A stretch of 57,356 nucleotides of DNA from an uncultured SAR86 cluster bacterium (GTDB lineage Bacteria > Pseudomonadota > Gammaproteobacteria > Magnimaribacterales > D2472), in the NCBI GenBank assembly GCA_902556355.1, contig CACDVW010000004.1, positions 1 through 57,356 on the forward strand. Direction: 5' to 3'. This document shows, piece by piece, positions 21,382-43,228 of this stretch. A model generated the notes under the pieces. That model worked only from the letters and a program-made list of their open reading frames with translations, was not told where the DNA came from and did no database searches. Made by a program: the position numbers and the translations under genes. Every line of letters begins with the position of its first letter. Position 1 is the stretch's first letter.

Positions 21382-21414
21382 AAACTTATATTTGTAAATG
21401 GGTATGTATTAACT

Positions 21415-21498
21415 TTAGCTATATGCGAGTTTAACTACATAGATAAATATTACTATTGCTAAACATATAAAAATAACCCAGTTAACCCAATTATTCAT
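21415..21498 (-). CDS. Possible 27-aa membrane peptide
   Basis: MNNWVNWVIFICLAIVIFIYVVKLAYS. Confidence 0.4.
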   Translation of the reverse strand: MNNWVNWVIFICLAIVIFIYVVKLAYS

Positions 21499-21596
21499 TT
21501 TTATATTTTAACAAAAGAAAATAGGAGATTTATGATTTTTATTTGTTTATAGATTGTGTCAGAATAATTAAACTTATTTTTCTAACTGGAGAGATT

Positions 21597-21698
21597 ATGA
21601 ATTGGTTAAAAAACTTCTTTTATAAACTGTTTAGTAAATCAGAAAGAAAGATTTTTGATAAGTCTGATTTAGAATACCAAGATAGTGATAACACTTAA
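21597..21698 (+). CDS. Possible 33-aa peptide
   Basis: GGAG RBS at 21588-21591; MNWLKNFFYKLFSKSERKIFDKSDLEYQDSDNT, amphipathic N-terminus and acidic tail. Confidence 0.5.
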   Translation: MNWLKNFFYKLFSKSERKIFDKSDLEYQDSDNT

Positions 21699-21729
21699 CG
21701 ATACTATTAAAAACTAAAAAATAAAATAA

Positions 21730-21757
21730 TTGCGAAACTTGCAAAACCCTATAAAAT
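21730..21757 (+). promoter_or_regulatory. Probable native tRNA-Ser promoter, now upstream of the truncated copy
   Basis: TTGCGA-N16-TAAAAT ending 16 nt before the tRNA 5' fragment. Confidence 0.65.
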
Positions 21758-21773
21758 AGCTACTTCAGAATCA

Positions 21774-21996
21774 GGAGGGATGGCAGAGTCTGGTTTATTG
21801 TAACGGTCTTGAAATGTTCCCTTAGGTCTTTTACTACTCATTAACACTATTTAAAACGGCATTAATATAACCTTTTAAAAAAGAGTAATATTTCTTGAAA
21901 AGCAGTAAAGAAATAAAAATCCCACAAAAATCCCACAATTACCTTAATAGGATCAGACTGACTCTAGGAAAAGAGGGAGCTTGCGAATAACCCATT
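21774..21996 (+). repeat. attL-like repeat, copy 1 (41-bp tRNA-Ser 5' half + 182-bp arm)
   Basis: Identical over 223 bp to 27702-27924; contains ATCCCACAAAAATCCCAC at 21919-21936. Confidence 0.95.
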
Positions 21997-22042
21997 GGGA
22001 TTTAGTAAAAAGAACCTAGTTTAAAGTAATAATAATTATATT

Positions 22043-22059
22043 CTTTACAATTCTTAAAA
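22043..22059 (+). promoter_or_regulatory. Candidate CpxR/OmpR-family binding site
   Basis: CTTTACAATTCTTAAAA; 16/17 match to 24560-24576; both lie about 56-59 nt before a start codon. Confidence 0.55.
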
Positions 22060-22118
22060 AAATAATAAAAACTTTTTATTTAAAATTATGTCTATATAAG
22101 AAACTATATGGAGTATTT

Positions 22119-22484
22119 ATGAAAACAAACTTACTATCACTTACATTAATAACACTTTTTTCATCTTCTGTTATGGCAAATTCAGGAATGAGTATAAAAG
22201 ATATTCGAACTGTTGAAGATGTTCAAGACATTCGTAACAAAATTATCTTCAGAATGACCGAAGTTTTAAATACAGAAAATTTATCAGAAGATAAGGTAAT
22301 GATACTTAAAAAAAGAATTGAGTTACTTTCAAATAAACCTCTTCCCACACAAGAGCAGATTGATTGGAGAGTTGAAAATCCATTAGATTTTCATTCACTT
22401 AAACAAAATAAGGATCAGTTGAAAAGAGATTTAAGAATTAAGATATTTCGACACTTCAGAAATAATAGGCAGCTTGTTGGGTAA
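22119..22484 (+). CDS. Exported hypothetical protein
   Basis: GGAG RBS; signal peptide ending in VMA; charged helical mature region. Confidence 0.75.
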   Translation: MKTNLLSLTLITLFSSSVMANSGMSIKDIRTVEDVQDIRNKIIFRMTEVLNTENLSEDKVMILKKRIELLSNKPLPTQEQIDWRVENPLDFHSLKQNKDQLKRDLRIKIFRHFRNNRQLVG

Positions 22485-22541
22485 AGTATTTAATTAATAA
22501 TAACAGAGCCGTTATTTAAGAATAGAAATCCTAGATTTAAT

Positions 22542-23213
22542 ATGAGAGTACTTCTTGTTGATGATGATAAAAAATTTACTACTGGACTGAAAATATTTCT
22601 CAATAAATTCAGTATTATTGTAACAATTGAGGACTGCATATCTTCAGCAGAAAAACAACTTAAAAAATCAAATTTTGATGTTATTTTATTAGATGTAATG
22701 ATGCCTGGTGGTAGTGGGTTTGATTTTTTGCCAACTATTCGAAGGATATGTGATATTCCAGTAATTATGTTAACTGCATTAGATGAAGAGAATGAGCTTG
22801 TAACCGGCTTAGATCTAGGCGCAGACGATTACATTACAAAACCATTTAGCCCCAATGAATTAGTTGCTCGTATACGAGCAATACATAGGAGATATTCAAA
22901 CGGTAAAACTAATAACCAAAGTATTTTGGATGATCTTGAATTATTTCATAGTCAGTGCATGGTAAGAGTAGGGAGTATCAATATTAATCTTACAGAAGCT
23001 GAATCTCTTATCATCCATCTGCTTTTAAATGCAAAAGATAATTATTTAACTCGTGAATTTTTATATCATCAAGTTTTGAATCGTGAAATGATGCCAGAAG
23101 ACAGAAGTTTAGATGTTCACATTAGTAATCTGAGACGGAAATTGGGCCCACATCCAATTAAAGGTAATAGGTTTAAATCAATCAGAGGTAAGGGTTATGC
23201 CCTTACAAAATAA
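22542..23213 (+). CDS. OmpR-family response regulator (CpxR-like)
   Basis: LLVDDD, LLDVMMP, GADDYITKPF, DRSLDVHISNLRRKL, IRGKGY. Confidence 0.95.
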   Translation: MRVLLVDDDKKFTTGLKIFLNKFSIIVTIEDCISSAEKQLKKSNFDVILLDVMMPGGSGFDFLPTIRRICDIPVIMLTALDEENELVTGLDLGADDYITKPFSPNELVARIRAIHRRYSNGKTNNQSILDDLELFHSQCMVRVGSININLTEAESLIIHLLLNAKDNYLTREFLYHQVLNREMMPEDRSLDVHISNLRRKLGPHPIKGNRFKSIRGKGYALTK

Positions 23214-24574
23214 TGCGTAATTTAGTTTGGACATTTTGGCTTGCATTAATCTTAGCAATTATTGGTACTTTTATCTCAAGTGCCATTTTGATAAATCAAT
23301 GGAATAACTACATGTATTATTCTGAAATAGAAGGTCGTCCAAACTATCCTCTCTTCGAACTTTCTAAGGAAATTGAAAATACATTGGAAAACCAAGGCAA
23401 CCTTGAGGATCTTTTACTTAAAAACCCAATTAGTAAATTTGGAGATATTTATCTCATTGATTCTTCAGGCTTAGATGTTTTAAGACGCACACTGCCTGAG
23501 GAAATAGTAATCAAATCAAACAGTCAGCCTATAACTAAACAACCAAAATTTACACAAACAATTAAGCTTGATACTGGTGAAACATTTTTTTTAATTTTTA
23601 GTTTTGATTTAGAACAACGTCCTATATGGAATCTCTTTAAGAGATTTGGTCTTCTTTGGATTTTTTTTCTAGCATTCATTATTTCTGGATTAATTTCTTG
23701 GTGGTTAGCATCTAAGACTGTGCGCCCAATTCAAAAGATAGCATTAGTAAGTAGACTTCATGGAGAGGGCGATTTACATGCACAGATTGATAAAGAAATT
23801 CTTGAACGTAAAGATGAAATAGGTGTACTTGCCAGACAGCTAAAAACCTCAGGCATAAAAATAGAGGAATTAATAAAGAAACAGAAAGATTTTTTAAGAG
23901 ATGTTTCTCATGAAGTTAGAACTCCACTTGCAAGAATGCAGATTGCTGTAGAAACTCTAGAACTAGATACCAGTGATGAAAAATCAATGAATCAGATTAA
24001 AAATGAAGTTCTTATTGTTGATCAGCTTGTTCAAGATTTACTTCATTTGTCTCATTTTGATCACCCATCCAAGAACCATAAGATTGATACTATTACTGTA
24101 TACAATTTAGTTCATCAGTGTATAGATAGATCGAAGATACTTGCTAGATCAAAAAACATTTCAATAAAAGTCTTAGATAAAAACTGGGAGAACATAAAGA
24201 TTAATGGAATTATCTTTTTACTAGAAAGGGCTATAGATAATATTTTAAGCAATGCACTGCGCCACTCTCCAGAATATGGTGAAATTGAAGTTACATGCGA
24301 AATAGAAAAGTCATATTGTTCTGTATGCATATATGATCAAGGTGAGGGCGTAACCGAAGAGAGTCTTAAAGATATATTTGAACCATTTGTCCGAATGGAT
24401 TCATCACGAAATCGACAGACAGGTGGTTTTGGTCTTGGTCTTTCATTAGTAAAACGAATTATAGAGTTTCATGGTGGTCAAGCTAGTGCATCAAATTATT
24501 CTAATGGCTTTGTGGTTAAATTAAAAATACCTTTAAATATAAATGCGTTAGAACTTTCTCTTAACAATTCTTAA
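23213..24574 (+). CDS. Sensor histidine kinase (CpxA-like)
   Basis: Two TMs, HAMP (RKDEIG), DVSHEVRTPL H-box, NALRH, DQGEG, GGFGLGL. Confidence 0.95.
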   Translation: MRNLVWTFWLALILAIIGTFISSAILINQWNNYMYYSEIEGRPNYPLFELSKEIENTLENQGNLEDLLLKNPISKFGDIYLIDSSGLDVLRRTLPEEIVIKSNSQPITKQPKFTQTIKLDTGETFFLIFSFDLEQRPIWNLFKRFGLLWIFFLAFIISGLISWWLASKTVRPIQKIALVSRLHGEGDLHAQIDKEILERKDEIGVLARQLKTSGIKIEELIKKQKDFLRDVSHEVRTPLARMQIAVETLELDTSDEKSMNQIKNEVLIVDQLVQDLLHLSHFDHPSKNHKIDTITVYNLVHQCIDRSKILARSKNISIKVLDKNWENIKINGIIFLLERAIDNILSNALRHSPEYGEIEVTCEIEKSYCSVCIYDQGEGVTEESLKDIFEPFVRMDSSRNRQTGGFGLGLSLVKRIIEFHGGQASASNYSNGFVVKLKIPLNINALELSLNNS

Positions 24575-24576
24575 AA
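24560..24576 (+). promoter_or_regulatory. Second copy of the candidate regulator site
   Basis: CTTAACAATTCTTAAAA, overlapping the kinase stop and upstream of the TBDR. Confidence 0.5.
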
Positions 24577-24632
24577 GAAATATTTATATCAACCAACTAA
24601 TATTCTTTCCATAAAAGTTTATTGGAAAAATT

Positions 24633-27086
24633 ATGATTAATATTAAATTTAAGTCATGTGCATTATTTATGTTCTTTGTATGTACGTTATCTGCAAATGT
24701 TGAATTACCCTTAATAGGAGGAAAAATTAACGATATCAACAGCGGTGAGTCCCTGCCATACGCAAAAGTTACTATTAAAGACACAAATAGAGTTTCTACA
24801 GCAAATCAAGATGGTTCATTTACTATACTTAATATTCCTGTGGGTTCAATTCTTGTAATCAATAAAATGGGATATGAAAGCAAGGAGATAAAAGTCTCTT
24901 CTGATACTAAACGATTGATTATAAATTTATTTAAACTTGAAAAGGATAGTTTGATTGAAGATGTTGTTGTTGTTGGAAGTGTTAATTCAAACATGATGCA
25001 ACAGTCTGGAATAAGTCAATTCTCTTTATCACCAGACCTTACACGATCTCTACCAAATCTTGGAGAACAAGATATCTTTAGATCAATGCAGTTATTACCA
25101 GGTGTATCTGGCTCCAATGAAAGCTCATCAGGACTTGTAGTAAGAGGAGGTACTATCGATCAGAATTTAGTTTTATTTGATGATTTCACTGTTTATCATG
25201 TAGACCATGTTTTTGGATTTTTTAGTGCATTTAATAATAATGCAATTAAGGATGTTCAATTTTACAAAGGAGGTTTTGGGGCAAAATATGGTGGACGTAT
25301 GTCTAGTGTTGTTGATATTACAGGTAAGGATGGAAATACTGAGCAATTCGGTATAGGTGCTAGTGTTAGTCTGTTAAGTACTAATGCTGTAGTTGAACAA
25401 CCTTTTGCAGATGGAGCAGGCTCTTTTATCTTAACAGGCCGCAAATCTTACCAAAGCGATCTCTATAACGATATTCTAGAGTCGGTTACTGGAGAAAACC
25501 AAAATGCTCAAGCTGGAACTTCAACACCTGGGCAATTTGCTTTAGGTAGATTTTCAATAGAACCAGAATCTTACTTTTATGATATGAATGCCAAACTAAC
25601 ATATAGACTACCAAACGATGATAAATTTTCTATCAGTTTTTATAATGGAGCAGATGAGCTTGATAACTCGCGAGATGTTGATGGGAATGCAGATATCAGT
25701 CGTTTATGTGAGTTGTTTGATGGAAATGGTCCTTTTGGAGGCACTTTTTGCGAAGAAGAAATTAGTTTTGCTGTAGGTACAATTGATCTAAGTGAATGGG
25801 GCAACACGGGCATTAGCGCAAAATATTCCCATCAATGGAATGATAGATTAGATACAAATTTTGTTATATCAGCATCAGAATATTTTAGTTATAGAGATCG
25901 TTTAATAAATACACAAGTTATATACGAAGATTCAGATGATGAACCAACAACAGGAGAGTCGAGCAGTAATGAGGATAATCAACTTGATGATTTTACTGTA
26001 AAAATTGAAAATGATTATTACTTAAATCAATGGAACACATTAAGTTTTGGATTGCAATATACTCAACAAAATATAGATTTTTCTCTTATACAAAATGGTG
26101 ATCTTGTTCTAGAAACCAAAAATGAAGGCGCTACCTCAACAGTTTATATTGAAGATGAGATTGTTATAAATGCACTTACAGTAATTCCCGGACTAAGAGT
26201 TAGTAAATATAGTATTAATGATGAAGTATATACAGAACCTAGATTATCGATTTCATATGAGTTAAATGATACTACGCAATTAAGAGCAGCTTTTGGTGAT
26301 TATCATCAATTTGCTCTCAGTGTTGCTAGACAAAGTATTGAGGAGGGACCTCGTAACTTCTGGACTTTAGCAGACGGGGAGACTGTACCTGTTAGCAAAT
26401 CAAGTCATTTTATATTGGGAACAACTCATTATGTCGGTAACTATAATTTTAATATTGAATTATTTCATAAGGAATATGAGGGTTTATCAGAATTCACGCA
26501 ACAGACACGACCAATTCGCAACGAAGACGGAACAGGGTTAACTCTTATTTTAGAACAAGAATTTCATACTGGTTCCGGGACTGCTTCTGGAGTTGAATTA
26601 TTTTTACAAAAAAATATCGGTGATCTAACTGGGTGGGTAGGATATACCTTTAGTGAAGTTATTTATGATTTTCCAACTGTTTCAGATACCACATATTTTG
26701 CTGATCAAGATGCAACAAATGAGTTCAAGACTGTATTGATGTATCGATGGGGGGATTGGGATTTAGCATCTACATTTATCTATGCTACCGGAAGGCCATA
26801 TACTGAAGTATTGGGTGTGGTAGAGGATACTTTTCCGCCAACATATGAGGTTGGTGCAAAAAATGATTTACGCTATGACGACTACCATCGTCTTGATTTG
26901 TCTTTTACATATAATTTTTCAAGAAGAGGACTTGACGGGCAAGCAGGATTATCAATATTCAACCTTTATGACCGTAAAAATCAATGGTACACAGAATATG
27001 AAATTATAGAAGGAGAAATTTTAGAAACAGAAATAACCTATCGTGGCTTTACTCCAAGTCTCTTTTTTAAGGTAGATTTATACTAA
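24633..27086 (+). CDS. TonB-dependent receptor with N-terminal carboxypeptidase-regulatory-like domain
   Basis: GKIND..SGESLPYAKV...NQDGSFT domain; LLPGV, VRGG..DQNLVLFD, HVFGFFSAFN, GAKYGGRMSSV. Confidence 0.92.
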   Translation: MINIKFKSCALFMFFVCTLSANVELPLIGGKINDINSGESLPYAKVTIKDTNRVSTANQDGSFTILNIPVGSILVINKMGYESKEIKVSSDTKRLIINLFKLEKDSLIEDVVVVGSVNSNMMQQSGISQFSLSPDLTRSLPNLGEQDIFRSMQLLPGVSGSNESSSGLVVRGGTIDQNLVLFDDFTVYHVDHVFGFFSAFNNNAIKDVQFYKGGFGAKYGGRMSSVVDITGKDGNTEQFGIGASVSLLSTNAVVEQPFADGAGSFILTGRKSYQSDLYNDILESVTGENQNAQAGTSTPGQFALGRFSIEPESYFYDMNAKLTYRLPNDDKFSISFYNGADELDNSRDVDGNADISRLCELFDGNGPFGGTFCEEEISFAVGTIDLSEWGNTGISAKYSHQWNDRLDTNFVISASEYFSYRDRLINTQVIYEDSDDEPTTGESSSNEDNQLDDFTVKIENDYYLNQWNTLSFGLQYTQQNIDFSLIQNGDLVLETKNEGATSTVYIEDEIVINALTVIPGLRVSKYSINDEVYTEPRLSISYELNDTTQLRAAFGDYHQFALSVARQSIEEGPRNFWTLADGETVPVSKSSHFILGTTHYVGNYNFNIELFHKEYEGLSEFTQQTRPIRNEDGTGLTLILEQEFHTGSGTASGVELFLQKNIGDLTGWVGYTFSEVIYDFPTVSDTTYFADQDATNEFKTVLMYRWGDWDLASTFIYATGRPYTEVLGVVEDTFPPTYEVGAKNDLRYDDYHRLDLSFTYNFSRRGLDGQAGLSIFNLYDRKNQWYTEYEIIEGEILETEITYRGFTPSLFFKVDLY

Positions 27087-27520
27087 TGTGTTCTTTAAAA
27101 ATAAATAGTAAAAAGTTAATTGTCATTATGCTTACTACCCTTATATCGGGAGTTAATGCTTCTGATTATGGTGAGCATAATGACATATTTTTAGAGATCC
27201 AATCAAGATTAAATTTAACAGAGGAACAAGTTCAACAATTCAAACCTATTTTTGTTGATAACTTTGAAAAACGAAGGAATTTAATGAATAAGTATGGCAT
27301 CAATATCAATAATAAAAAAACAACTAATAATAAAGGAATGGGAGTTATGGAAATACGTCAGCTTCGTTCGCTTAAAAAAGAAATTGATAAAATAAATAAA
27401 AATGCTGAAAAGCAGCTTGCTAACATTTTTACTAAAGAGCAAATGAATATTTATAAATTATTCCAAGAAGAGCAGCGAGATGAGATAAAAGAACAGCTTA
27501 TTGGAAGAAAGAATAGTTAG
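27086..27520 (+). CDS. Spy/CpxP-like (LTXXQ) periplasmic protein
   Basis: Signal peptide; LNLTEEQ and IFTKEQ motifs framing a helical hairpin. Confidence 0.65.
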   Translation: MCSLKINSKKLIVIMLTTLISGVNASDYGEHNDIFLEIQSRLNLTEEQVQQFKPIFVDNFEKRRNLMNKYGININNKKTTNNKGMGVMEIRQLRSLKKEIDKINKNAEKQLANIFTKEQMNIYKLFQEEQRDEIKEQLIGRKNS

Positions 27521-27532
27521 GTATAAGGATTT

Positions 27533-27592
27533 TGGTGCTAAGTTTCACTCTAAGAATTAATAAATGAGATAATCCTCCGTTTCTTAGCACCA
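27533..27592. repeat. 10-bp inverted repeat with 40-nt spacer
   Basis: TGGTGCTAAG (27533-27542) and CTTAGCACCA (27583-27592). Confidence 0.6.
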
Positions 27593-27658
27593 TTTATAAC
27601 CCCTATTTATGTGGTATTTCATTATTAAATAGCCTAATTTTAGCAATTTAATTAGTTA

Positions 27659-27686
27659 TTGATTATGTATGAAAACCCTATAAAAT
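27659..27686 (+). promoter_or_regulatory. tRNA-type promoter before attL copy 2
   Basis: TTGATT-N16-TAAAAT; shares AAAACCCTATAAAATAG with the promoter at 21730-21757. Confidence 0.6.
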
Positions 27687-27701
27687 AGGCCTTCATTAAA
27701 C

Positions 27702-27924
27702 GGAGGGATGGCAGAGTCTGGTTTATTGTAACGGTCTTGAAATGTTCCCTTAGGTCTTTTACTACTCATTAACACTATTTAAAACGGCATTAATATAACC
27801 TTTTAAAAAAGAGTAATATTTCTTGAAAAGCAGTAAAGAAATAAAAATCCCACAAAAATCCCACAATTACCTTAATAGGATCAGACTGACTCTAGGAAAA
27901 GAGGGAGCTTGCGAATAACCCATT
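27702..27924 (+). repeat. attL-like repeat, copy 2
   Basis: Identical to 21774-21996 (offset 5928 bp). Confidence 0.95.
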
Positions 27925-27964
27925 ATGGATCGTTAAGAAGAACCTATACCTAAATTAATTAAAA

Positions 27965-28219
27965 CTAACCATAACGTATCTTATAAACTAATATAAATAG
28001 TGATAATGAAAAACTTATACTATTTGAAAAAATTAACGGATAAGACACAATTAAAATACCATAAATAAGCCAAAGCAATACACCTAAAGTTGTAACAAAA
28101 AAAGTAAAAAACGATATATCTGATGTTGATTTAGATTTATATATTTTTACAGCTTGAGGTAAAAATGCAAAAGTAGTAAAACATGCAGCCGCAAAACCAA
28201 TTAATTCGATATAATTCAT
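27965..28219 (-). CDS. SemiSWEET (PQ-loop) sugar transporter
   Basis: IGFAAACFTTFAFLPQ, DIS, LWLIYG, PLIFSN; three TMs, 84 aa. Confidence 0.93.
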   Translation of the reverse strand: MNYIELIGFAAACFTTFAFLPQAVKIYKSKSTSDISFFTFFVTTLGVLLWLIYGILIVSYPLIFSNSISFSLSLFILVYKIRYG

Positions 28220-28221
28220 TT

Positions 28222-29118
28222 TTAATAAGTATTCCTGACATGCATTCTGTATTTACTAGGACTAATATTTTTAGCTTTTAAAAAAGCTCTATGAAAAGTG
28301 CTATGTGAGTCAAACCCACAATCTTCACTAATCACAGATAAAGTTTTTTGAGTGCTAATCATTTGCCTACATGCCTCTTCAACTCTATATTTATTAAGGT
28401 ACTCATTAAAACCAATATTCATGGTTTGTTTAAACCATCTGCTAAATGCAGCTGGTACCATAAAAGTTTGATTTGCCATATCCTCTAGGTTTATTGAATT
28501 TTGATAATTTTCTTGAATATATTTAATTACAGTGTTAAGTCTATCATGTGCTAAATGATCATTTTTACTAAAAGATGGGTTTCTTAAATATTTTATTGAA
28601 GACAATCTTTCAACTCTTTGCATCCAGTGATCTTGCGATATATTTTTAAATAATTCTAATAATGTTAAAAGTTTATTTAATGGATTCATGTCAATATTTT
28701 CTAAGAAATGTGTTAATGATTCTGAGTAAAAATTTTCAATATAGATACCTCTATTAGACAAATTTATTATTTTTAACACTTCATCAAGTTCTTCAAAGTG
28801 ATGATTTGATTCTAGTAATTCAGGTTTAATCTGAATTAGAAGAAGTTCAGCTTGTTTAATACTGCCTTCGACATGAAGATCATGAGGTAGATTATTACCA
28901 AATATAAAAAAATCACCTGGTTTAAAATTGCCTAAATAGTCACCAACTTGGCATGCACCGGACCCATTAATTATATAAATTATTTCAAGTTCTGGATGAT
29001 AGTGCCAGTATGCTGGTTTCTTTGGTAGTACCTGATGCTCTAAGTAAATCGAAGATTTATCTAAATTTGCTGCTGGTTTTACTTCTAAAAAAGGAATCAT
29101 ATTTCTAATTTTAAACAA
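28222..29118 (-). CDS. AraC-family regulator with cupin sensor
   Basis: WHYHPELEI, NLPH; C-terminal FSRWFK, CGFDS.STFHRAF, SPSKYR. Confidence 0.93.
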   Translation of the reverse strand: MFKIRNMIPFLEVKPAANLDKSSIYLEHQVLPKKPAYWHYHPELEIIYIINGSGACQVGDYLGNFKPGDFFIFGNNLPHDLHVEGSIKQAELLLIQIKPELLESNHHFEELDEVLKIINLSNRGIYIENFYSESLTHFLENIDMNPLNKLLTLLELFKNISQDHWMQRVERLSSIKYLRNPSFSKNDHLAHDRLNTVIKYIQENYQNSINLEDMANQTFMVPAAFSRWFKQTMNIGFNEYLNKYRVEEACRQMISTQKTLSVISEDCGFDSHSTFHRAFLKAKNISPSKYRMHVRNTY

Positions 29119-29243
29119 TTTTTTACATAAAAATATACTCTAATGTTAAAAAATGATAGTTTTCTGTAAAAAATTAGTCAATTATTTACACATATTTATA
29201 TTAGTATATTGTCAATTATTCTTTCAATAGGGGGACTTTAATC

Positions 29244-32012: not shown

Positions 32013-32092
32013 ATTTGAAATAACCCTGTAAAAATTAACGAAGTTATAGATTATTTTAAATGTACATATGTTGATCACATAAAAAAAAGATC

Positions 32093-32118
32093 ACACCGGT
32101 CGTGAGAGCGGCCGGTGT
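32093..32118 (+). promoter_or_regulatory. GC-rich stem-loop just before the GH97 RBS
   Basis: ACACCGGTCG-TGAGAG-CGGCCGGTGT; no downstream T tract; TAAGGA follows. Confidence 0.6.
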
Positions 32119-32137
32119 CCCCTAAGGAAAATTACAT

Positions 32138-34183: not shown

Positions 34184-34198
34184 GACCTTAGATTGTTT

Positions 34199-35890: not shown

Positions 35891-36752
35891 AAGGCTTAGC
35901 ATAATTATTTTTATAGCAATATTTTCTACAGATATATCTGGTCTCAATATTTCAGCAGGACAAATCTCGTCATATAGCATTGACTCACAATATATAGGTA
36001 GTAGGAAGTTTTATATCTTTATTCCAGAAGGAGTAACTCCATCCAATGCTACTAAGGTTATCTATATGCATGATGGTCAAATGCTTTTTGATAAAGATAT
36101 TACTTGGAACAATCAAGAATGGATGGTTGATGAAGTGAGTAATAGAATTGTTGCTGAAAACGGCTTTAATTTTATCGTTGTGGGCATTATGAATGCAGGA
36201 TATAAAAAAAGATGGTTTGAATATTTTCCAGAAAAAGCTCTTACTACTTATCAAAAAAAAAGCATGGATCAAGAATTTACTTCTGATGAATATTTAAATT
36301 TTTTGACCATTGAGCTGAAACCTTTTTTATTTAACATTATGAAAATCTCACATGACTCCAATAATCATTTTTTAATGGGATCTAGTATGGGTGCATTAAT
36401 ATCAATGTATGGGGTTATTGAAAAGCAAGATGAATTTGGAGGTTTTGCTGCAATTTCAACACATTGGCCTGGTGCTATTAATGAAGATAAAAATGCTTTT
36501 GACCAATCAATTCAGGATTATTTAAATAAAAATTTTCTTAGACTTCATAATAAAAGAATATATTTTGATCATGGGACTGAAGCTCTAGATGCACATTATG
36601 ATAAGTATCAAAAAGAAGTTGATAGAATATTTTCAACAGAACTTCAAAAGCATAATATGTTTCAATCAAAAAAATTTATTGGTGCATCTCATGATGAAAA
36701 TTCATGGTCTCAAAGGTTACATATTCCATTAAAGTTCTTGCTTGATGACTAA
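35862..36752 (+). CDS. Putative esterase (alpha/beta hydrolase)
   Basis: YMHDGQMLFD, GSSMG, YFDHG, HDENSW. Confidence 0.88.
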   Translation: MNILYVFLNKRLSIIIFIAIFSTDISGLNISAGQISSYSIDSQYIGSRKFYIFIPEGVTPSNATKVIYMHDGQMLFDKDITWNNQEWMVDEVSNRIVAENGFNFIVVGIMNAGYKKRWFEYFPEKALTTYQKKSMDQEFTSDEYLNFLTIELKPFLFNIMKISHDSNNHFLMGSSMGALISMYGVIEKQDEFGGFAAISTHWPGAINEDKNAFDQSIQDYLNKNFLRLHNKRIYFDHGTEALDAHYDKYQKEVDRIFSTELQKHNMFQSKKFIGASHDENSWSQRLHIPLKFLLDD

Positions 36753-36791
36753 ACTTTTATCAACTTATGTATTTAATAACTGGAGTAAAGG

Positions 36792-38360
36792 ATGATTTTT
36801 AACACATTAGATTGGATTATTGTAGGTCTTTATTGTATTGGTATTATCTCTCTCGCAACATATGTTTCAAGAACATCCATAGGCAAAGAAAGGACTGCAG
36901 AGGATTATTTTTTAGCAGGTCGCTCTCTTCCATGGTGGGCTATTGGTGCATCTTTAATAGCAGCAAATATTTCAGCTGAACAAATCATTGGTATGTCCGG
37001 ACAAGGCTTTGTAGTTGGAATGGCAATTGCAGTTTGGGAACTAACTGCAGCCGTTGCTTTAATAATAGTAGCTAAATTCTTTATTCCTTTATTCTTAGAA
37101 AAAAAGATTTATACAATGCCTCAGTTTTTAGAGGAAAGATTTGATAGAAGAGTAAGTCTAACCTTATCTTTATTTTGGCTAACTTTATATATTTTTATTA
37201 ATTTAACAACAGTCTTATGGCTTGGTTCATTAGCTATAAATACTCTGACAGGCTTATCTTTAATAAATGGTCTAATCTTATTAGCACTATTATCGCTTGC
37301 ATACTCTTTGTCTGGAGGTCTTAAGGCTGTTGCAATGACTGACATTGTCCAAGTTGTTCTTTTGATATTTGGAGGTCTCGCAGTTTCTTATATTGCATTG
37401 AATACAATCTCTAATGATGCAGGTGTTCTTAGTGGTTTAACTATTGTTTACCAAGAACTACCAGAAAAATTTGATATGATTCTTTCGCCAGATAATCCTT
37501 CATATGAAAATCTTCCTGGCATATGGATATTACTTGGTGCCGGGGTTTGGATTGGCCACATTTCTTATTGGGGATTTAGTCAGTACATAACCCAAAGAGC
37601 ACTTGCAGCAAAATCAGTTAATGAAGCACAGAAAGGCGTTATGTTTGCCGCCTATCTAAAACTATTAATGCCTTTTGTTATAGTTCTTCCTGGCATATGC
37701 GCCGCAATACTTTTTGCTGATATCGAGAAATCTGATCAAGCATACCCAACCATGATGTCTTTACTTCCTAATGGATTATTGGGTTTAACTTTTGCAGCTC
37801 TTATAGCTGCAATCGTTTCATCCCTAGCCTCTATGACAAATAGTATAAGCACTATTTTTACCATGGATATATATAGAAAATTTTCTAGAAATAATATTTC
37901 AGAATCTAAGTTAATTAGTATTGGCAGAAATACAGTTATCTTTTCATTATTAATAGCTGTAATAGTTGCAAAACCTTTACTAGGAAGCGTTGAGTCTATT
38001 TTTCAGCATATTCAAAACTTTACTGGATATTTCACACCAGGAATAGTTGTAATATTTTTAGTTGCGTTGTTTTGGAATAAAGCTACAACTCTGTCTACAT
38101 TGGTAGCAGCAATATCTTCTTTAATATTATCAATAGTGTTAAGTTTTGTTTATCCTGAATTACCATTCATACATAGAATGGGGATAGTTTTCTTTATCTC
38201 TGGATTTGCATGTTACATGACAGCCTTAATTCAAGGATATCAAGTACAGGCTAAGGCTATTGATTTAAAAGGAATAGATTTTAGAACCTCAAAATCTTTT
38301 AATATAAATACTTTTGTTATAGTTTTTATACTTGTGCTCATTTATACAACTTTAGGATAG
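36792..38360 (+). CDS. Sodium/sugar symporter (SSS, SGLT-like)
   Basis: DYFLAGRSLPWW, ANISAEQ, TMPQFLEERF, GGLKAVA.TD, QYITQRALAA. Confidence 0.95.
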   Translation: MIFNTLDWIIVGLYCIGIISLATYVSRTSIGKERTAEDYFLAGRSLPWWAIGASLIAANISAEQIIGMSGQGFVVGMAIAVWELTAAVALIIVAKFFIPLFLEKKIYTMPQFLEERFDRRVSLTLSLFWLTLYIFINLTTVLWLGSLAINTLTGLSLINGLILLALLSLAYSLSGGLKAVAMTDIVQVVLLIFGGLAVSYIALNTISNDAGVLSGLTIVYQELPEKFDMILSPDNPSYENLPGIWILLGAGVWIGHISYWGFSQYITQRALAAKSVNEAQKGVMFAAYLKLLMPFVIVLPGICAAILFADIEKSDQAYPTMMSLLPNGLLGLTFAALIAAIVSSLASMTNSISTIFTMDIYRKFSRNNISESKLISIGRNTVIFSLLIAVIVAKPLLGSVESIFQHIQNFTGYFTPGIVVIFLVALFWNKATTLSTLVAAISSLILSIVLSFVYPELPFIHRMGIVFFISGFACYMTALIQGYQVQAKAIDLKGIDFRTSKSFNINTFVIVFILVLIYTTLG

Positions 38361-38452
38361 TTATCTATAAATACTTTTGTAGATAGTGAGAATGACTTTC
38401 AGAACTTTTCTGTAACAGTTGATGAGATTATTAAGTTTTTAATAAATTAGAA

Positions 38453-38478
38453 AAGCCCATAACCTAAGTTACAGGCTT
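38453..38478. terminator. Imperfect hairpin between convergent cargo and backbone genes
   Basis: AAGCC-ca-TAAC-ctaa-GTTA-ca-GGCTT, preceded by an A run. Confidence 0.4.
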
Positions 38479-38575
38479 AATCATTAAACAGGACAATTCA
38501 ATGAATATGATCCTACACTATGGTGCATTTAGTTTTTGTCAAGTTACTAAAATTCCACCCATCACTATCACAACA

Positions 38576-38610
38576 ACACTTTACCCCCTTTATAGGGGGG
38601 GGGTAAGTGT
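38576..38610. other. C-run/G-run inverted repeat, candidate replication origin
   Basis: ACACTTTACCCCCT-TTAT-AGGGGGGGGGTAAGTGT, 50 bp past the helicase stop. Confidence 0.4.
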
Positions 38611-38660
38611 GTGTTTGATTTATAGTGTTTTGGGCAATTTTCAAACAAATACATAAAAAC

Positions 38661-39623
38661 CTATTTGTTTGATTGTTTTGAATCATCTATAAACCCTTGA
38701 TTTAATAACTTATTCCAAGCTCTATTTAAAACAACACCATAAGAGTTTGAATTGTTGTATTTTTTTCCAAAGGTATTTTCCGTGTTTGATTTTATTTCTT
38801 TTTTAGTCAATCCTTTCTTATTTAATCTGATAATTTCATCTTCTAATGGAGTTAGATTCTTACCAATTTCAACATATAAAGTATCTTGCTCATGAGCTAC
38901 AGTTCTTCTCATAACAAAAGGAATTGATGTTCCTTCAGCTTTAGATTTCATTTTTTCTCTATATAAATACATTTGGTCATCTCTACCTTTTTTAACTTTC
39001 AAAACAGTAGGGAAGTCATTGTGTTGTATTGATGAACCCATGATTCCTTTAGAAGCATTTTTACCAGCATGAGCAATAACTAGTATTGAACAAGTGTATT
39101 TAGAACCTTTAATCCAAGTTTTAAGATTCTTAATTGCTTTTCTAATAGCACCATCATCATTAATACTTTTTTCACCTAAAGATTGTGAAAGGGTGTCGAT
39201 AATAACTAGCTTTTCAAAATCGTTATACTGACCACAATCTGCCCAAGTAAAATGGTCTTCTTCATGTTCTTCTTCATGCCTATAGTTTGCAGTTAAATCT
39301 AAAGCCTCATCCTCAATAAGTAGGCTTTCTGAAATATCTTGGTTTGAATAACTTTCCTGAAGCAGACCTCTTATTCGTGGCACTAAATCCTCCATGTTCG
39401 TATCTGGACTGAAGATACGAACGCTCCCAGTCACCGTAGCTCCTAGTTCCTGAGAACCAGTTGCCACTTCTAACGCTATCTTCAACGATAGAAAAGTTTT
39501 GTACTGGTTCGTTGGTGCGTAAAGTATTACTATTTCTCCCATTGGGATTAAATTTTCTATTAGCCATCTTTTATTTACTCCTTCTTTAAGTTGTTGTTCT
39601 AGATAATTTAGATTTCTTGTCAT
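38661..39623 (-). CDS. RepA/AAA_25-type (SF4-like) helicase
   Basis: WLIENLIP, Walker A variant APTNQYKT, Walker B VIIDTLS, VIAHAGK, GSS; start MTRN follows a GAGGA RBS. Confidence 0.85.
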   Translation of the reverse strand: MTRNLNYLEQQLKEGVNKRWLIENLIPMGEIVILYAPTNQYKTFLSLKIALEVATGSQELGATVTGSVRIFSPDTNMEDLVPRIRGLLQESYSNQDISESLLIEDEALDLTANYRHEEEHEEDHFTWADCGQYNDFEKLVIIDTLSQSLGEKSINDDGAIRKAIKNLKTWIKGSKYTCSILVIAHAGKNASKGIMGSSIQHNDFPTVLKVKKGRDDQMYLYREKMKSKAEGTSIPFVMRRTVAHEQDTLYVEIGKNLTPLEDEIIRLNKKGLTKKEIKSNTENTFGKKYNNSNSYGVVLNRAWNKLLNQGFIDDSKQSNK

Positions 39624-39789
39624 TTTGTTTGTCCTCATTAATTATTTTTTGAATAGATTGAGCAGGGATCATTATTTTCTTCCCAAACTTAAAACTTTTT
39701 AGCTGTCCTGAATTTACTAGGTTATAGGTTGTATTCATTCCACAGCCTAGAGCTTCAGCAGTCTCTTTAATTGTGTATGCGATTTTCAT
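39586..39789 (-). CDS. Excisionase-like HTH protein
   Basis: YTIKETAEALG...YNLVNSGQLKSFKFGKKIMIP, an HTH_17/Xis pattern. Confidence 0.88.
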   Translation of the reverse strand: MKIAYTIKETAEALGCGMNTTYNLVNSGQLKSFKFGKKIMIPAQSIQKIINEDKQNDKKSKLSRTTT

Positions 39790-39905
39790 TTTTTATTCCT
39801 TTTTAAATAAATTTAAATAACAGTTGCATCTTATTTGAAAATCAAATATATTTAAAACACTTAATAGTTTAAAAGTGTTTAAATGTTTAAGAAAAGGACA
39901 ATCAA

Positions 39906-40790
39906 ATGGAAATTAGATATCAAATTAAAACAAGAAATATAAGTCAAAAATACTGGTTTGAAAGAGAAGGTAACGACTTTGTTCTAAAAGCACATAATAA
40001 ATCTACAAATCGATACAAAGGAGCCTTAAAGGAAGCAGGGATGCTTTTTACTGAATCAGATACTCCTTTATATGAGGAGTTTTTGGATATATTAAAACCT
40101 TTAAGCTCTCATGGAATATTTAGACAAAATTGGTTAGATATATGTAATCCAACGTCTAAAAAATATGATGAGCAAATTTGTTCTGAGGTTATGGAAGCAA
40201 TTACTGATCATGCATCAATTTTTGGAATGGCTTTCCATCCAAAACCTACAGCAAAAATACTAAAGGATTTTGGTAATGGAATGTTTATACCCGAGGTTGC
40301 TTATAAAACAGGTGCTAATGGAAAATTAAAATCAGATGTGTATCCAAGAGAAGCAACACTAAGAAATATATTGCTTCATGCTCATGTTTTATATGACTCA
40401 TTAACTTATACAAAAGAACAATTCTTAGAAGATGATGTTTTAACAACATATTTTAATCAATTAGGACAACCTCAAATTGTTGCCCATCCAGCAGGTCTAT
40501 CTATTTGGGTAGAAGGTTATTGGGAGTCTGTATGGTTCAGCTATTCAATAGATAAGAGAAGATTGCATGCAGGATATTGTGGATATTGTGATGCGCCTGT
40601 CATTAGAACAAAAAAAGCAGGTTTTTGTGACAACAAATGTAAATCTGCATATCACAACAATAAAAACAAAGAAGTTGCTAAAGCAAAAAGAATCATGAAA
40701 AAAGCTACTTTGGGTGATGTTCTAAAAGATCCCAAGGTTGCTAACGCGTTTAAATTATTGGAGGAAGCTATAAAAAATGATAATAAGTAA
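39906..40790 (+). CDS. Hypothetical protein with C-terminal CGNR-like zinc finger
   Basis: CGYC...FCDNKCK followed by a basic helix; AGGA RBS. Confidence 0.75.
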   Translation: MEIRYQIKTRNISQKYWFEREGNDFVLKAHNKSTNRYKGALKEAGMLFTESDTPLYEEFLDILKPLSSHGIFRQNWLDICNPTSKKYDEQICSEVMEAITDHASIFGMAFHPKPTAKILKDFGNGMFIPEVAYKTGANGKLKSDVYPREATLRNILLHAHVLYDSLTYTKEQFLEDDVLTTYFNQLGQPQIVAHPAGLSIWVEGYWESVWFSYSIDKRRLHAGYCGYCDAPVIRTKKAGFCDNKCKSAYHNNKNKEVAKAKRIMKKATLGDVLKDPKVANAFKLLEEAIKNDNK

Positions 40791-40992
40791 TATAGAAAAG
40801 AACCTTGATACTGTCGAAACAATATCAGGTAAGGAGCTAGCTAAGAGATGGGGTGTATCTCATAAAAGTATTGAGAACAGAAGATATAGAAATGATACAC
40901 CTGCATACTTCAAGATAGGTGGCAAAGTCAGATATGACCTTCAAGATGTAAGAAGGTTTGAGCAGAAATGCTATGTTGACTCAAGAAGATGA
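40777..40992 (+). CDS. AlpA/Xis-like HTH DNA-binding protein
   Basis: KELAKRWGVS.KSIENRR...PAYFKIGGKVRY.L.DV..FE. Confidence 0.88.
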   Translation: MIISNIEKNLDTVETISGKELAKRWGVSHKSIENRRYRNDTPAYFKIGGKVRYDLQDVRRFEQKCYVDSRR

Positions 40993-41489
40993 AATTACCT
41001 GCAACTAGAAAAGAAGCATTAAAGTTAGGTATTAAGTTTTATAAAACCAATAAACCTTGCAAACACGGTCATAACTCAAAAAGATATACAAGTTCAAAAG
41101 GTTGCTATGAATGTGTTAAAGCAACTTGGGATGAATCTAATCAACGCAAGAAAGATCGTTACGATAAAAATTGGGTTCAAGAATTATTAAAAAGAAAAAA
41201 CTATGTTCTTAAAGCTACCTATAACATGAATTTTATGGATTATAGAAACATAGTTGCTTCACAAAATTATAAATGTCCTTTGTGTCTTAAAAATGAAACC
41301 TTTATGGAAGATTATCAACTTAGAAATAAAGCTAAGGGTTATCTAGGTGATTTAGTTGTAGATCATTGTCATAAGTCAGGAAAGGTTAGGGGTGCTTTAT
41401 GTCAGGACTGTAATAGAGCATTAGGTGGTTTTAAGGATGATATAAACATTTTAAGTAGAGCTATTGAATATTTGGAGGAAAGAGGGTGA
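40989..41489 (+). CDS. Endonuclease VII-domain protein with N-terminal Cys/His domain
   Basis: QNYKCPLC...VVDHCH.SGKVRGALC..CN.ALG.F.D; N-terminal KPCKHGH...CYEC. Confidence 0.9.
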   Translation: MKLPATRKEALKLGIKFYKTNKPCKHGHNSKRYTSSKGCYECVKATWDESNQRKKDRYDKNWVQELLKRKNYVLKATYNMNFMDYRNIVASQNYKCPLCLKNETFMEDYQLRNKAKGYLGDLVVDHCHKSGKVRGALCQDCNRALGGFKDDINILSRAIEYLEERG

Positions 41490-42592
41490 ATCTAACTAAA
41501 CATAAAGATGGCTATAGAGTCTTTTGTGAGAAAACCATAAATGGTACAAGACATAGAAAAACTGTTTTTGTTAAGAACAAAAGAGAAGCTAAATTATTTG
41601 AAGCTGAGTTTATTGCTAATCTAAATAAGGGCAAGGCAAGCCCAACAATGCGATTAGACCTATATGGTCAGAACTATATTAATAATCTTGATGGTTTAGA
41701 ACAAAGAACTATAGATAGCTATCAGTGTGCTTTTAACAGAATCAAACCATATATCAAATATAAACTAAATGAAGTTAATGCAGATATATGGGTCTCTATC
41801 TATAACAAGCTAAAAAGAAAGGAATTAGCACCAAGAACTATTAAACATACTTTTAGAATCATGAAGATGATATGTGATCGTGCTGAAAACGTATATGGAA
41901 TAAAAATGGGACATGGTAAGTTCAAAACCACCGTTAGATTAAAGGTAGAAGATATAGATGATCCAAAAGCACTTGATTTAGATCAACAACAACTTCTTAT
42001 AAATTACCTAACTGACCATAAAGAAGAAAATGAAATCATGTATCAGACATTTATTTTTTGTTTAATTGGTATCTATACAGGTATGAGAACTGGTGAAATA
42101 GGTGCATTAACATGGAAGGATATAGATTTGTTTAATAAAACAATTGATATAAACAAAGCTATCTCTAAATCTTCAACAGGAGAGTTTATCAAAGAGCCTA
42201 AAACTAAACATAGTATTAGGAAGATAACTATTCATGATATTGCTGTAAAAGAGCTTAGAAAATATAAAGAACATTTAGAATCAATTGGTATAGTTCATCA
42301 TTTGTCTTCATGGATTTTTATTAATCATAGTGATCCTAAAAGTCATACACCTGTAACTGTATGGTCTAAAAGAGTTCCTAAGGTCATGAAGGATGTTGGT
42401 ATAAGAGGTTTCTCTGCACATTCACTAAGACATACACATGCTTCAAATCTGTTAATGAATAACTGTCCTGTAGTTCAGGTTGCAAATAGATTAGGGCATA
42501 AAGATGCTACTGTTACTCTAAAAGTCTATGCAAGTTTCATAGAACAATTAGGTGTAGACTTTAATGAATATATGCCTAAAATACACGCTTGA
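41486..42592 (+). CDS. int: Tyrosine recombinase/integrase
   Basis: TGMRTGE (R), PKT (K), HSLRHTHAS (HxxR), RLGH, VYA (Y); N-terminal arm-binding-like beta region. Confidence 0.96.
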   Translation: MNLTKHKDGYRVFCEKTINGTRHRKTVFVKNKREAKLFEAEFIANLNKGKASPTMRLDLYGQNYINNLDGLEQRTIDSYQCAFNRIKPYIKYKLNEVNADIWVSIYNKLKRKELAPRTIKHTFRIMKMICDRAENVYGIKMGHGKFKTTVRLKVEDIDDPKALDLDQQQLLINYLTDHKEENEIMYQTFIFCLIGIYTGMRTGEIGALTWKDIDLFNKTIDINKAISKSSTGEFIKEPKTKHSIRKITIHDIAVKELRKYKEHLESIGIVHHLSSWIFINHSDPKSHTPVTVWSKRVPKVMKDVGIRGFSAHSLRHTHASNLLMNNCPVVQVANRLGHKDATVTLKVYASFIEQLGVDFNEYMPKIHA

Positions 42593-42610
42593 GATTGAAA
42601 AACTAATGAT

Positions 42611-42628
42611 ATCCCACAAAAATCCCAC
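42611..42628 (+). repeat. Candidate integrase arm-type site
   Basis: ATCCCACAAAAATCCCAC, identical to 21919-21936 and 27847-27864. Confidence 0.75.
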
Positions 42629-42672
42629 TAATGGATTTAGAAGGAAGTCTTAGAAATCTCAAAACTGTTTAG

Positions 42673-42694
42673 AAACCCTATAGCTATAGGGTTT
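42673..42694. promoter_or_regulatory. Perfect 22-bp palindrome upstream of the tRNA
   Basis: AAACCCTATAGCTATAGGGTTT. Confidence 0.7.
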
Positions 42695-42703
42695 TCAGAA
42701 TCA

Positions 42704-42795
42704 GGAGGGATGGCAGAGTCTGGTTTATTGTAACGGTCTTGAAAACCGTCGTGCTTTCATCGGCACCGTGGGTTCGAATCCCACTCCCTCCGCCA
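42704..42795 (+). tRNA. tRNA-Ser(UGA), intact (attR)
   Basis: GGAGGGA/TCCCTCC acceptor stem, ACGGT-CTTGAAA-ACCGT anticodon arm, long variable arm, GGTTCGAATCC, G73 and encoded CCA. Confidence 0.98.
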
Positions 42796-42808
42796 TTTGG
42801 TAAACGCA

Positions 42809-43228
42809 ATGTCAGATAATAATAAAGATATATCAGAGTTCTTTAGAGAAGTTCCACCATTTTTAAAAGTATTTAATATTATAAAAGCATACCCAATAGA
42901 TGATGATGAATTTGTTGTTGAGTTTAGTCCTGGTGAAGAATTAACCCATTCAAATGGGATGGTTGTGCAAGGTGGTTTTGTAACTGGCATGCTTGATTGC
43001 TGCATGGCTCAATTTTTAATTTATAAAGCTAAAGGTAAACAGATCCCACTAACATTAGATATAGATGTTAAGTTTTTGAGACCATGTGCACCAGGTCCAC
43101 TAAAGACTGTTGCAAATATAACAAAAGAGGGCAAATCTATCTGTTTTACTGAAGCTGTCTTGTATCAAAATGATAAAATAATAGCCACATCATCAGCTAC
43201 TAATAAGATGGTTGATAGTCCTTTTTAA
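42809..43228 (+). CDS. PaaI-family (hotdog) thioesterase
   Basis: GMVVQGGFVTGMLD, TLDIDVKFLRP, IIATSSAT. Confidence 0.88.
   Translation: MSDNNKDISEFFREVPPFLKVFNIIKAYPIDDDEFVVEFSPGEELTHSNGMVVQGGFVTGMLDCCMAQFLIYKAKGKQIPLTLDIDVKFLRPCAPGPLKTVANITKEGKSICFTEAVLYQNDKIIATSSATNKMVDSPF

Follow-up and report, generated by a model that had tools for sequence, protein, structure and literature searches.

Tandem accretion of an autonomous integrative element and an integrase-less, decayed partner at a tRNA gene is a known arrangement, as tycheposons, tandems of cis-mobilizable elements (CIMEs) with integrative and conjugative elements (ICEs), the ssrA islands of Dehalococcoides and the Islander tandems already illustrate. 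In the accessible text of their description, tycheposons are small tyrosine-recombinase elements of streamlined marine bacteria located at tRNA genes, including Ser-tga; they are rare and transient, partial tRNAs separate their tandems, remnants build islands and relatives occur in Gammaproteobacteria (bioRxiv 10.1101/2020.12.28.424599). The same portion of text reports their enrichment in vesicles and phage particles and leaves the packaging route open. CIME/ICE composites can excise by their outer att sites, a process termed cis-mobilisation in the available part of PMC5704250 (citing Pavlovic 2004 and Bellanger 2011), and integrase-less cargo islands lie in tandem at an RNA gene in Dehalococcoides according to that of PMC3146451. 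The accessible Islander text counts 159 islands with a 5′ fragment versus 3,760 with a 3′ fragment and lists 125 tandem arrays (PMC4383910). Here, we analysed a locus at a tRNA-Ser(UGA) gene in a stretch of 57,356 nt (the window), which is the entire contig C4 (CACDVW010000004.1) of the assembly of an uncultured SAR86 cluster bacterium (GCA_902556355.1; 1.07 Mb, 47 contigs, 75% complete). Our best explanation, to which we assign as a whole a probability of roughly 0.6, is an additive island of small integrative elements, formed at the only tRNA-Ser(UGA) gene of a marine proteobacterium with a streamlined genome, with a complete and mobile element (module 2), a decayed one (module 1) and a cos-like block in the attachment arm. 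The new point is that this arm block, of a fixed length of 81 bp, also occupies the terS-proximal gap of phages. In the following, G000 is the genome of the window, other G numbers are relative genomes, L numbers fetched loci or contigs and X numbers sequencing runs.

The intact tRNA-Ser(UGA) gene lies at 42704–42795 on the plus strand. It was the only tRNA-Ser(tga) found by ARAGORN and Rfam and the only Rfam match in the window, the arm giving nothing but SCARNA20 at 13.3 bits (threshold 44). Its 5′ half (42704–42744), the attR core, recurs on the same strand in two displaced 41-nt copies, the attL1 core at 21774–21814 and the attL2 core at 27702–27742. This half extends to the end of the anticodon loop. 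A repeat search returned a 51-nt repeat at 21764, 27692 and 42694 that comprises the half and 10 nt upstream of it; between the copies at 21764 and 42694 the identity covers all 51 nt, the 10 upstream nucleotides included. The two attL regions form a 256-nt repeat (21763–22018 and 27691–27946), and in the alignment 21774–21996 equals 27702–27924 over 223 bp without a mismatch. The att sites are spaced by 5,928 bp (module 1), 15,002 bp (module 2) and 20,930 bp (both). A genome-wide search of G000 revealed three core copies in all and one integrase of the element's family, all of them at this locus. Repeat search, alignment and genome scan thus bear out an earlier note on this DNA, which had proposed a tRNA-Ser-anchored island built by successive site-specific integrations, with an intact tRNA, one integrase, one attR and two attL sites with the same arm, and excision spans of 15,002 and 20,930 bp. 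The gene contents it gave for both modules and the promoter-like sites it placed before attL1 and attL2 were likewise recovered.

Since the repeated part is the 5′ half and the intact gene stands at the right end, we propose that the elements supply the 5′ half together with the upstream region, so that the native 5′ half with its promoter would have been displaced leftward. Recombination would take place in the anticodon loop and replace the tRNA 5′ half plus the region upstream of it. A promoter scan identified the site TTGCGA-16-TAAAAT (21730–21757, plus strand), presumably the native tRNA-Ser promoter, which is cut off from the tRNA and now directed into module 1. A second site read from the sequence, TTGATT-16-TAAAAT at 27659–27686, precedes attL2. 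By-eye reading gave a promoter-like layout at a constant distance to the core in all 22 upstream regions of the window and 17 relatives. Left of attL1, about 190 bp (21520–21708) holding a 33-codon open reading frame (ORF; 21598–21699) are absent from G023, and position 21519 is also the left end of a deletion in G019.

Module 2 (27702–42703; 15,002 bp) consists of core, arm, alpha-glucan cargo, replication/excision backbone and an integrase beside the tRNA, and is a complete, recently mobile member of its family. Two metagenome contigs, L123 and L124, carry a backbone 99.9% identical to that of module 2 (3 of 3,806 and 3 of 3,028 nt mismatched, respectively) next to host flanks that diverge by 10–19% (41 of 213 and 115 of 1,129 positions right of the tRNA). 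The same backbone beside divergent flanks places the module 2 element in at least three host backgrounds. Its tyrosine integrase (41486–42592, plus strand; 368 aa), identified by domain searches and alignment, is directed toward the tRNA and has an intact catalytic set, and residues R201, K239, H312, R315, H338 and Y348 are invariant across the family alignment. The backbone begins with an AAA_25 ATPase (38661–39638, minus strand), which Pfam and PHROG searches relate to the helicase portion of primase/helicases from phages, which shares its PHROG families with the primase/helicase of a G023 prophage and which is, judged by these matches, probably a replication protein. It is followed by an HTH_17 excisionase/AlpA-like protein (39586–39789, minus strand; TIGR01764, 34.2 bits versus a cut-off of 28.8), a conserved 294-aa protein with an invariant C-x2-C...C motif in the family alignment (39906–40790, plus strand), a second excisionase-like HTH_17 protein found in domain searches (40777–40992, plus strand) and an Endonuclease VII of the His-Me/HNH type (40989–41489, plus strand), which overlaps the integrase start by 4 nt. 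The last four backbone genes overlap by 4–14 nt. For the 294-aa protein no family was found in Pfam, PHROG or NCBIfam, a protein atlas gave unnamed clusters only, and its AlphaFold model (pLDDT 68) had no Foldseek match in the PDB at E ≤ 0.001.

Gene and domain calls assign the cargo of module 2 (27965–38360, mixed strands; 10.7 kb) to alpha-glucan use, with a SWEET-like transporter and AraC on the minus strand and a TonB-dependent receptor, GH97, GH13, an esterase and an SSF symporter on the plus strand. The SSF gene (36789–38286) represents an additional copy of a core gene, with 97.5% identity to the syntenic core-locus copy of G019 (G019:C6:1550–3047) and just 86% to the copy that G000 itself has elsewhere (C14:26580–28102). 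The rest of the locus gave no DNA match in 36 family genomes, and the sole match of 27965–36752 was a syntenic locus in another family of the order (G057:C2:827464–835092; 65–69% identity). As the SSF gene is close to a G019 core copy and the remainder is unmatched in the family, the cargo of module 2 is a mosaic, and the SSF gene indicates apparent gene flow between element cargo and chromosome. At the end of the SSF gene and the border of cargo and backbone (38279–38380), two 39-nt direct repeats, 72% alike, lie 63 nt apart.

Module 1 (21774–27701; 5,928 bp) carries on the plus strand a cargo (22119–27520) of a 121-aa unknown protein, a response regulator, a histidine kinase, a TonB-dependent receptor and an LTXXQ/Spy-like protein, and a right end (27521–27701, plus strand) that corresponds to a truncated integrase-side arm and includes the promoter-like site before attL2. 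Neither domain search nor tblastn detected an integrase or backbone remnant in 21815–27701 or in the G023 and G019 copies, as the earlier note had stated for module 1; its last ~100 nt nevertheless resemble the tRNA-proximal ends of other elements. A repeat pair of the kind that marks the integrase side of module 2 was not found in this right end, which identifies module 1 as a decayed element rather than a designed cassette. Module 1 is thus an older member that has lost backbone, integrase and integrase-side pair and kept the left arm and the tRNA promoter.

Comparison with two relatives shows that module 1 also occurs by itself. In G023 the left flank, core, arm, module 1 and intact tRNA follow each other, and module 2 is missing; G019 has module 1 beside the tRNA with the same integrase-less structure and right end (98% identity), and the equivalent of 21520–21973, i.e. 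the core and most of the arm, is deleted. The product that the earlier note expected from the shorter excision, module 1 with its own promoter and an intact tRNA, therefore exists in both genomes. Between G000 and G023 the genes of module 1 (22119–27520) differ at 15 of 5,402 positions (99.72% identity), the adjoining stretch 21997–22118 at 0 of 122 and the right end at 2 of 181. Outside the module, identity falls to 83% in the 65 nt upstream of the core, 93.7% in the right flank and 86–90% in the left-flank genes. The near-identity stops at the att cores on both sides, a pattern consistent with an integrase-less unit that moved as one piece bounded by its att sites. The receptor of module 1 is represented by 120 clusters at 99–100% identity among the matches listed; for 52 of these 120 (hand count) the longest contig measures 5.3–6.5 kb, and contigs of about module size suggest that assemblies break at both module ends.

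With a full attL arm and a truncated integrase-side arm, module 1 could by its anatomy move only with a neighbour, and the sole anatomically complete att pair available to it is attL1 with the attR of module 2. Recombination of attL1 with attR would excise module 1 along with its autonomous neighbour, the composite would be transferred to another cell and integrate there, and later excision of the neighbour alone would leave module 1 behind as in G023. We tentatively favour such hitch-hiking as the most likely route of spread, somewhat below even odds.

The arm behind each partial core measures about 204 bp (21815–22018 and 27743–27946, plus strand). In both copies a pair of ATCCCAC words with 11-nt spacing (21919–21936 and 27847–27864) precedes the 81-nt block (21938–22018 and 27866–27946). 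A third pair (42611–42628) follows directly after the integrase gene in the integrase-side arm (42593–42703, plus strand), whose 22-nt palindrome (42673–42694) lies a short way upstream of the intact tRNA. Six of the eight ATCCCAC occurrences in the window make up these three pairs (21919/21930, 27847/27858 and 42611/42622). Other family members have pairs at equal distances with different words (TCTACGGAT, GTCCGCA, CTACACA), and these direct repeats of 7–9 nt with 11-nt spacing co-vary with the integrase type. On this basis, the pairs are putative arm-type integrase sites. Four junctions have enough arm sequence for a comparison of the integrase-side pair with the pair behind the core (L140 is too short); the two pairs match in L134, L135 and L136 and differ in L142, and the three matching junctions may be attP sites or tandems of the same type.

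The distal part of the arm is the 81-nt block, ATTACCTTAAT...AAGAACCTA, both ends of which are invariant while the interior is partly conserved; cargo starts immediately after it. The block pattern was present at 14 places in the fetched loci, with a length of exactly 81 nt in 13 of them. Within the order, 7 of 266 genomes, all from family f1, contain the exact pattern (reversed control pattern: 0 of 266), and seven of the eight genomic occurrences are attL arms. When IMG/VR was scanned for the two block ends at fixed spacing, the pattern matched phage contigs only, six contigs of two phage types. In all six the block fills the gap from the stop of a tail-type gene to the start of terS within 0–10 nt, followed by terS, terL, a head-tail joining gene (connector), a portal gene and a major head gene. 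In lambda, cos lies directly upstream of Nu1, with the same gene order downstream of cos. One relative of the phage terL is annotated gpA/gpNu1. An HNH nuclease had been considered for the phage gene upstream of the block, for which Pfam gives weak Minor_tail_Z only; the record of Roseobacter phage CRP-821, considered as cos evidence, has a layout that is circular by convention and is uninformative. This phage link of the arm goes beyond the earlier note.

A prophage-like region in G023 connects these phages with the host. Its terL is 90% identical to that of phage contig L190, it is syntenic with the L190-type phage (81% identity over 7.2 kb), a block variant stands directly before its terS, and the contiguous host DNA matches contig C10 of G000. 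The position of this prophage in contiguous host DNA implies that these phages infect the genus of G000 and G023. The region (G023:C4:~50500–72734; L201, L202) reaches the contig end and encodes a RecE-like exonuclease, RusA, a primase/helicase, a tail-type gene, terS, terL and structural genes. C10 of G000 ends at the host position syntenic to the prophage, and an attachment site was not found.

As a packaging site is needed just once on a circle, we read the block as a candidate cos-like packaging signal, and rate this at about even odds from its position. The same balanced estimate applies to the view that the elements are cargo-carrying, cos-type phage satellites that may move in helper-phage capsids. 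Satellites that bear a cos site are known, namely P4, SaPIbov5 and the enteric chromosomal islands, and Murialdo and Feiss 2022 is reportedly a reference on cos-type phage satellites. A more specific proposal, which we hold only provisionally and with less confidence than hitch-hiking, is that tycheposon-like cargo elements spread by cos mimicry, the packaging site of the host's temperate phages having been copied into the att arm. Helper phages could then cut and package any DNA that keeps the arm, even the integrase-less module 1, and deliver it to cells in which the integrase of a resident relative would re-insert it at tRNA-Ser. A terS-like redirector role of the HTH_17 proteins was also considered and is not supported, neither of the two showing similarity to phage terS.

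Several observations weigh against parts of our explanation. A promoter scan found no good -35/-10 pair within 60 nt upstream of the intact tRNA. As regards module 1, G023 and G019 are 98.3% identical not only over the module but also over at least 4.7 kb of right flank (left flank 90%), so that large homologous exchanges occur here too, and module 1 could have spread by homologous recombination. In its strongest form this alternative, which we judge unlikely but worth taking seriously, holds that module 1 is an immobile fossil, that the near-identity across species arose by homologous recombination anchored at the conserved tRNA and core, and that module 2 inserted beside it. The clean deletion of attL from G019, which nevertheless retains module 1, the missing integrase-side pair and the large recombination tracts all speak for it, as does the SSF gene of module 2, whose identity to the G019 core-locus gene suggests that chromosomal homologous exchange happens. 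On the other hand, the tract shared by G000 and G023 ends at the cores, and the ends of random recombination events rarely coincide with att cores on both sides.

The cos-like reading of the block is positional only, and the element encodes no terS or capsid gene. Within the invariant ends, blocks of elements and of the sampled phages are only 53–72% identical. In two loci the block stands inverted inside the element (L131:4181–4261 and L132:4013–4093, both minus strand), in L132 at 34 nt from a 5′-truncated integrase gene, which suggests that the block has served as an end point of inversions or rearrangements. The block may alternatively be a shared architectural or regulatory site that serves, for instance, an excisionase, a late activator or a host factor and is used independently by phages and elements. 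RNAalifold found no consensus RNA fold for the block, invariant ends and a fixed length would also suit a protein-binding platform, and the block adjoins the putative integrase arm sites. We judge this alternative, too, unlikely but worth taking seriously: the phage blocks are far from any integrase and lie exactly in the terS-proximal intergenic gap, and a promoter would not fit both contexts, because the direction toward terS in the phage corresponds to that toward the core in the element, which appears geneless there.

The tandem order itself rests on one metagenome-assembled contig with a repeat of more than 200 bp. At least 64% of the sampled words of 21400–31399 occur in each of 20 runs (14 studies), and we compared 22850–42849 with four runs, X1, X2 and X14 by summed contig depth and X24 by raw reads. 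Module 1, module 2 cargo and backbone reached depths of 44.5, 9.3 and 5–7 (one bin 0.9) in X1, ~114, ~7.2 and ~5–7 (one bin 1.5) in X2 and 22–45, 10–17 and 4–8 in X14; as these depths sum all organisms at ≥95% identity, the one conclusion they allow is that module 1 has a much wider distribution than module 2. In X24 all parts were near 4x. At this depth, at which absence carries little weight, no joints were reported at the att sites and no excision, circle or empty-site junction of the element was seen; Logan contigs break at repeats. The two alternative excisions put forward in the earlier note are anatomically possible, with ATCCCAC pairs in both attL arms and on the integrase side, while their junctions were not seen at ~4x. 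Letters of the G023 arm appeared in 4 of 8 X24 reads at 27825 and 4 of 9 at 27840; since attL1 reads map onto attL2 in the reference used, these variants suggest that the actual arms are not identical. The 6 mismatches and the 11-nt gap between the G000 and G023 arms all fall inside the stretch shared with attL2. The perfect identity over 223 bp, which the earlier note had recorded and which holds in the assembly, fits either gene conversion or a collapsed assembly repeat, and the X24 reads suggest that the two arms may have been collapsed.

Carried further, this would amount to an assembly artefact in which module 1-only and module 2-only haplotypes were joined through the shared core and arm. 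The contig stems from a 47-contig, 75%-complete assembly, the repeat exceeds usual k-mers, module 1 is 5–16x deeper than module 2 in X1 and X2, and the perfect arm identity contrasts with the differences from the G023 arm. We consider such an artefact improbable. Common final k-mers exceed the length of the junction that joins the module 1 end, the core and the arm, and this junction should therefore have read support; both modules are at ~4x in X24, with the bin across attL2 covered and no loose ends there among the rows listed; and the locus L125 is an independent case of an element inserted beside a remnant end of the type seen in G018. A dedicated integron-like cassette exchange, in which the arm end AAGAACCTA would act as a second recombination site for cargo swaps, would account for the sharp family-wide boundary between block and variable cargo and is very improbable, as there is no second recombinase, the boundary motif is not repeated at the far cargo end, the integrase scores 29.2 bits against an integron-model cut-off of 265, and a conserved functional block beside freely varying cargo explains the boundary equally well. 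The integron-like array of the earlier note, with no attC-like site and never more than two modules, can therefore be kept as a metaphor only. Its cargo pick-up and drop-off matches known CIME/ICE cis-mobilisation and the growth of tycheposon islands; as such it is not new, and module 1 is a decayed element.

The additive island is further supported by the family of elements found elsewhere. Among the matches listed in a search of 5.8 billion proteins, the integrase had nine close relatives (36–91% identity), the next being at ~30%; a cyanobacterial name occurred in none of the 120 integrase relatives listed. In 200 other species genomes of the order we detected no full-length member and one remnant (G018). 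The single-protein query had no match in a genome contig collection, where an alignment query gave one unrelated 24% match, and the alignment query against IMG/VR retrieved distant integrases only (≤36% identity). A metagenome scan for integrase relatives returned 58 loci, in which a core followed by an arm was present at six places, five of them integrase–core–arm junctions. A complete relative of 6.2 kb, L125, has its backbone genes in the same order (integrase 78%, arm 89% identity) and carries a pentapeptide-repeat gene as cargo; its insertion adjoins upstream sequence identical to the end of the G018 remnant. Together with an alginate locus in G007, it provides the different cargo behind related arms that the earlier note had anticipated. 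Decay of elements is recurrent: integrase C-terminal remnants lie directly upstream of tRNA-Ser in G018, L146, L147, L151, L158, L160, L162, L163 and L166. L157 contains two such remnants, at 7757–7990 and 12273–12422, 4.5 kb apart, which suggests a tandem of two decayed elements. Loci with more than two modules were not seen among those examined. In L138 (~104–140), L156 and G227:C9 (L204), arms follow the 5′ half of another Ser-like tRNA, ending ...CTACCTTGGAAA; a tRNA-Ser(GGA) origin of some cores was not confirmed, ARAGORN finding tRNA-Ser(tga) next to the integrases of the loci concerned and in L138.

Window proteins, tRNAs and core copies were also mapped onto 18 stretches taken from genus and family relatives (17 genomes). 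In G016 the site is empty: the sequence that lies left of attL1 in the window leads directly into the intact tRNA (79% identity over 187 nt). Of the 17 genomes, four (G023, G018, G002 and G007) carry a displaced tRNA 5′ half upstream of the gene. The remnant in G018 (2.1 kb) comprises a single hydrolase gene and a C-terminal piece of an integrase gene, and G007 has an integrase-less island of 14.9 kb with genes for a TonB receptor, GntR, an alginate-lyase-like protein, MFS, PfkB, UxuA and Nramp. The 1.7-kb island of G002 (L026) contains two 163-aa ORFs of no known family (10302–10793 and 12033–12524), each directly upstream of a core copy and within upstream regions alike over ~90 nt; its end repeat pairs are mismatched, which makes this remnant a mosaic. 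In G020 (L040), the 100 nt upstream of tRNA-Ser (10074–10173) are 86% identical to the right end of module 1, and the 10 kb upstream of tRNA-Ser lack the genes of module 1 and of the left flank. A similar end with these genes absent indicates the same element-type end on a different island.

The locus bears on how flexible metabolic genes travel among tiny, plasmid-poor and conjugation-poor ocean bacteria. It represents a natural case of an integrase-less cassette crossing species with att-precise ends, and the finding that two of the searched species carry loci for carbohydrate use at one tRNA site (alpha-glucan for G000, alginate for G007) is relevant to niche partitioning. Moreover, the data point to a helper-phage group integrated in a sister species (G023) and provide in the 81-nt sequence a directly testable packaging-signal candidate in a heterotroph. 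If true, cos mimicry would make whole polysaccharide-use loci phage-borne, exchangeable cassettes.

The elements resemble tycheposons in ecology and share with them, as far as the accessible description of the latter goes, a replication/excision module combined with nutrient-acquisition cargo, tandems with partial tRNAs and degenerate remnants. Genes of comparable functional class occur (excisionase-like, helicase/primase-like and endonuclease genes), and the cargo is likewise adaptive, namely the alpha-glucan locus, the cassette of two-component system and TonB receptor and the alginate locus of G007. In contrast to the inward-facing integrase that the available text gives as their definition, the integrase (41486–42592, plus strand) stands here at the element end and reads outward to the tRNA, and the displaced fragment is the 5′ half. 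Tycheposons resembling phage-inducible chromosomal islands (PICIs) never carried cargo according to that text, whereas here a cargo carrier has the phage-shared block and no terS or capsid gene. Like a CIME, and subject to the assembly caveat, module 1 is integrase-less and decayed, keeps an att site and is accreted with an autonomous element of the same specificity. Compared with CIME ends, its attL is complete (pair and block), and its right end consists of the core and ~100 nt with the repeat pair missing from the truncated arm. Unlike CIME/ICE tandems, the locus carries no conjugation genes, and transfer of the elements is probably phage-borne.

With cos satellites, PICMI and VEIMEs the elements have in common an integrase, an AlpA/excisionase-type HTH protein, a primase/helicase-like protein, the lack of capsid genes and helper-like phage sequence. 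In the accessible portions of the respective texts, a small gene overlaps int by 4 nt in PICMI too (bioRxiv 10.1101/2023.07.18.549517), and some VEIMEs likewise have an HNH-type nuclease (PMC9618062); PICMI differs, in that portion, by headful packaging and integration at fis (bioRxiv 10.1101/2023.07.18.549517). Distinct from all three groups are the 10.7-kb metabolic locus and the location of the block inside the att arm beside putative integrase sites. Compared with an integron, the modules are multi-gene units with their own regulators, and the repeats are tRNA halves and arms instead of attC. As in the tRNA islands of Islander, the two ends are marked by an intact tRNA and a cognate fragment of like orientation, with the integrase between them; the 5′-fragment orientation, the minority there, implies that the element must also bring the tRNA upstream region. 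Our literature searches, which covered a limited collection and none of which targeted the 81-nt block, found neither the element family nor the block described. Its unusual features are the 5′-side target, the phage-shared block in an att arm, the large polysaccharide-use cargo on a satellite-like element, and an integrase-less cassette with att-precise near-identity across species.

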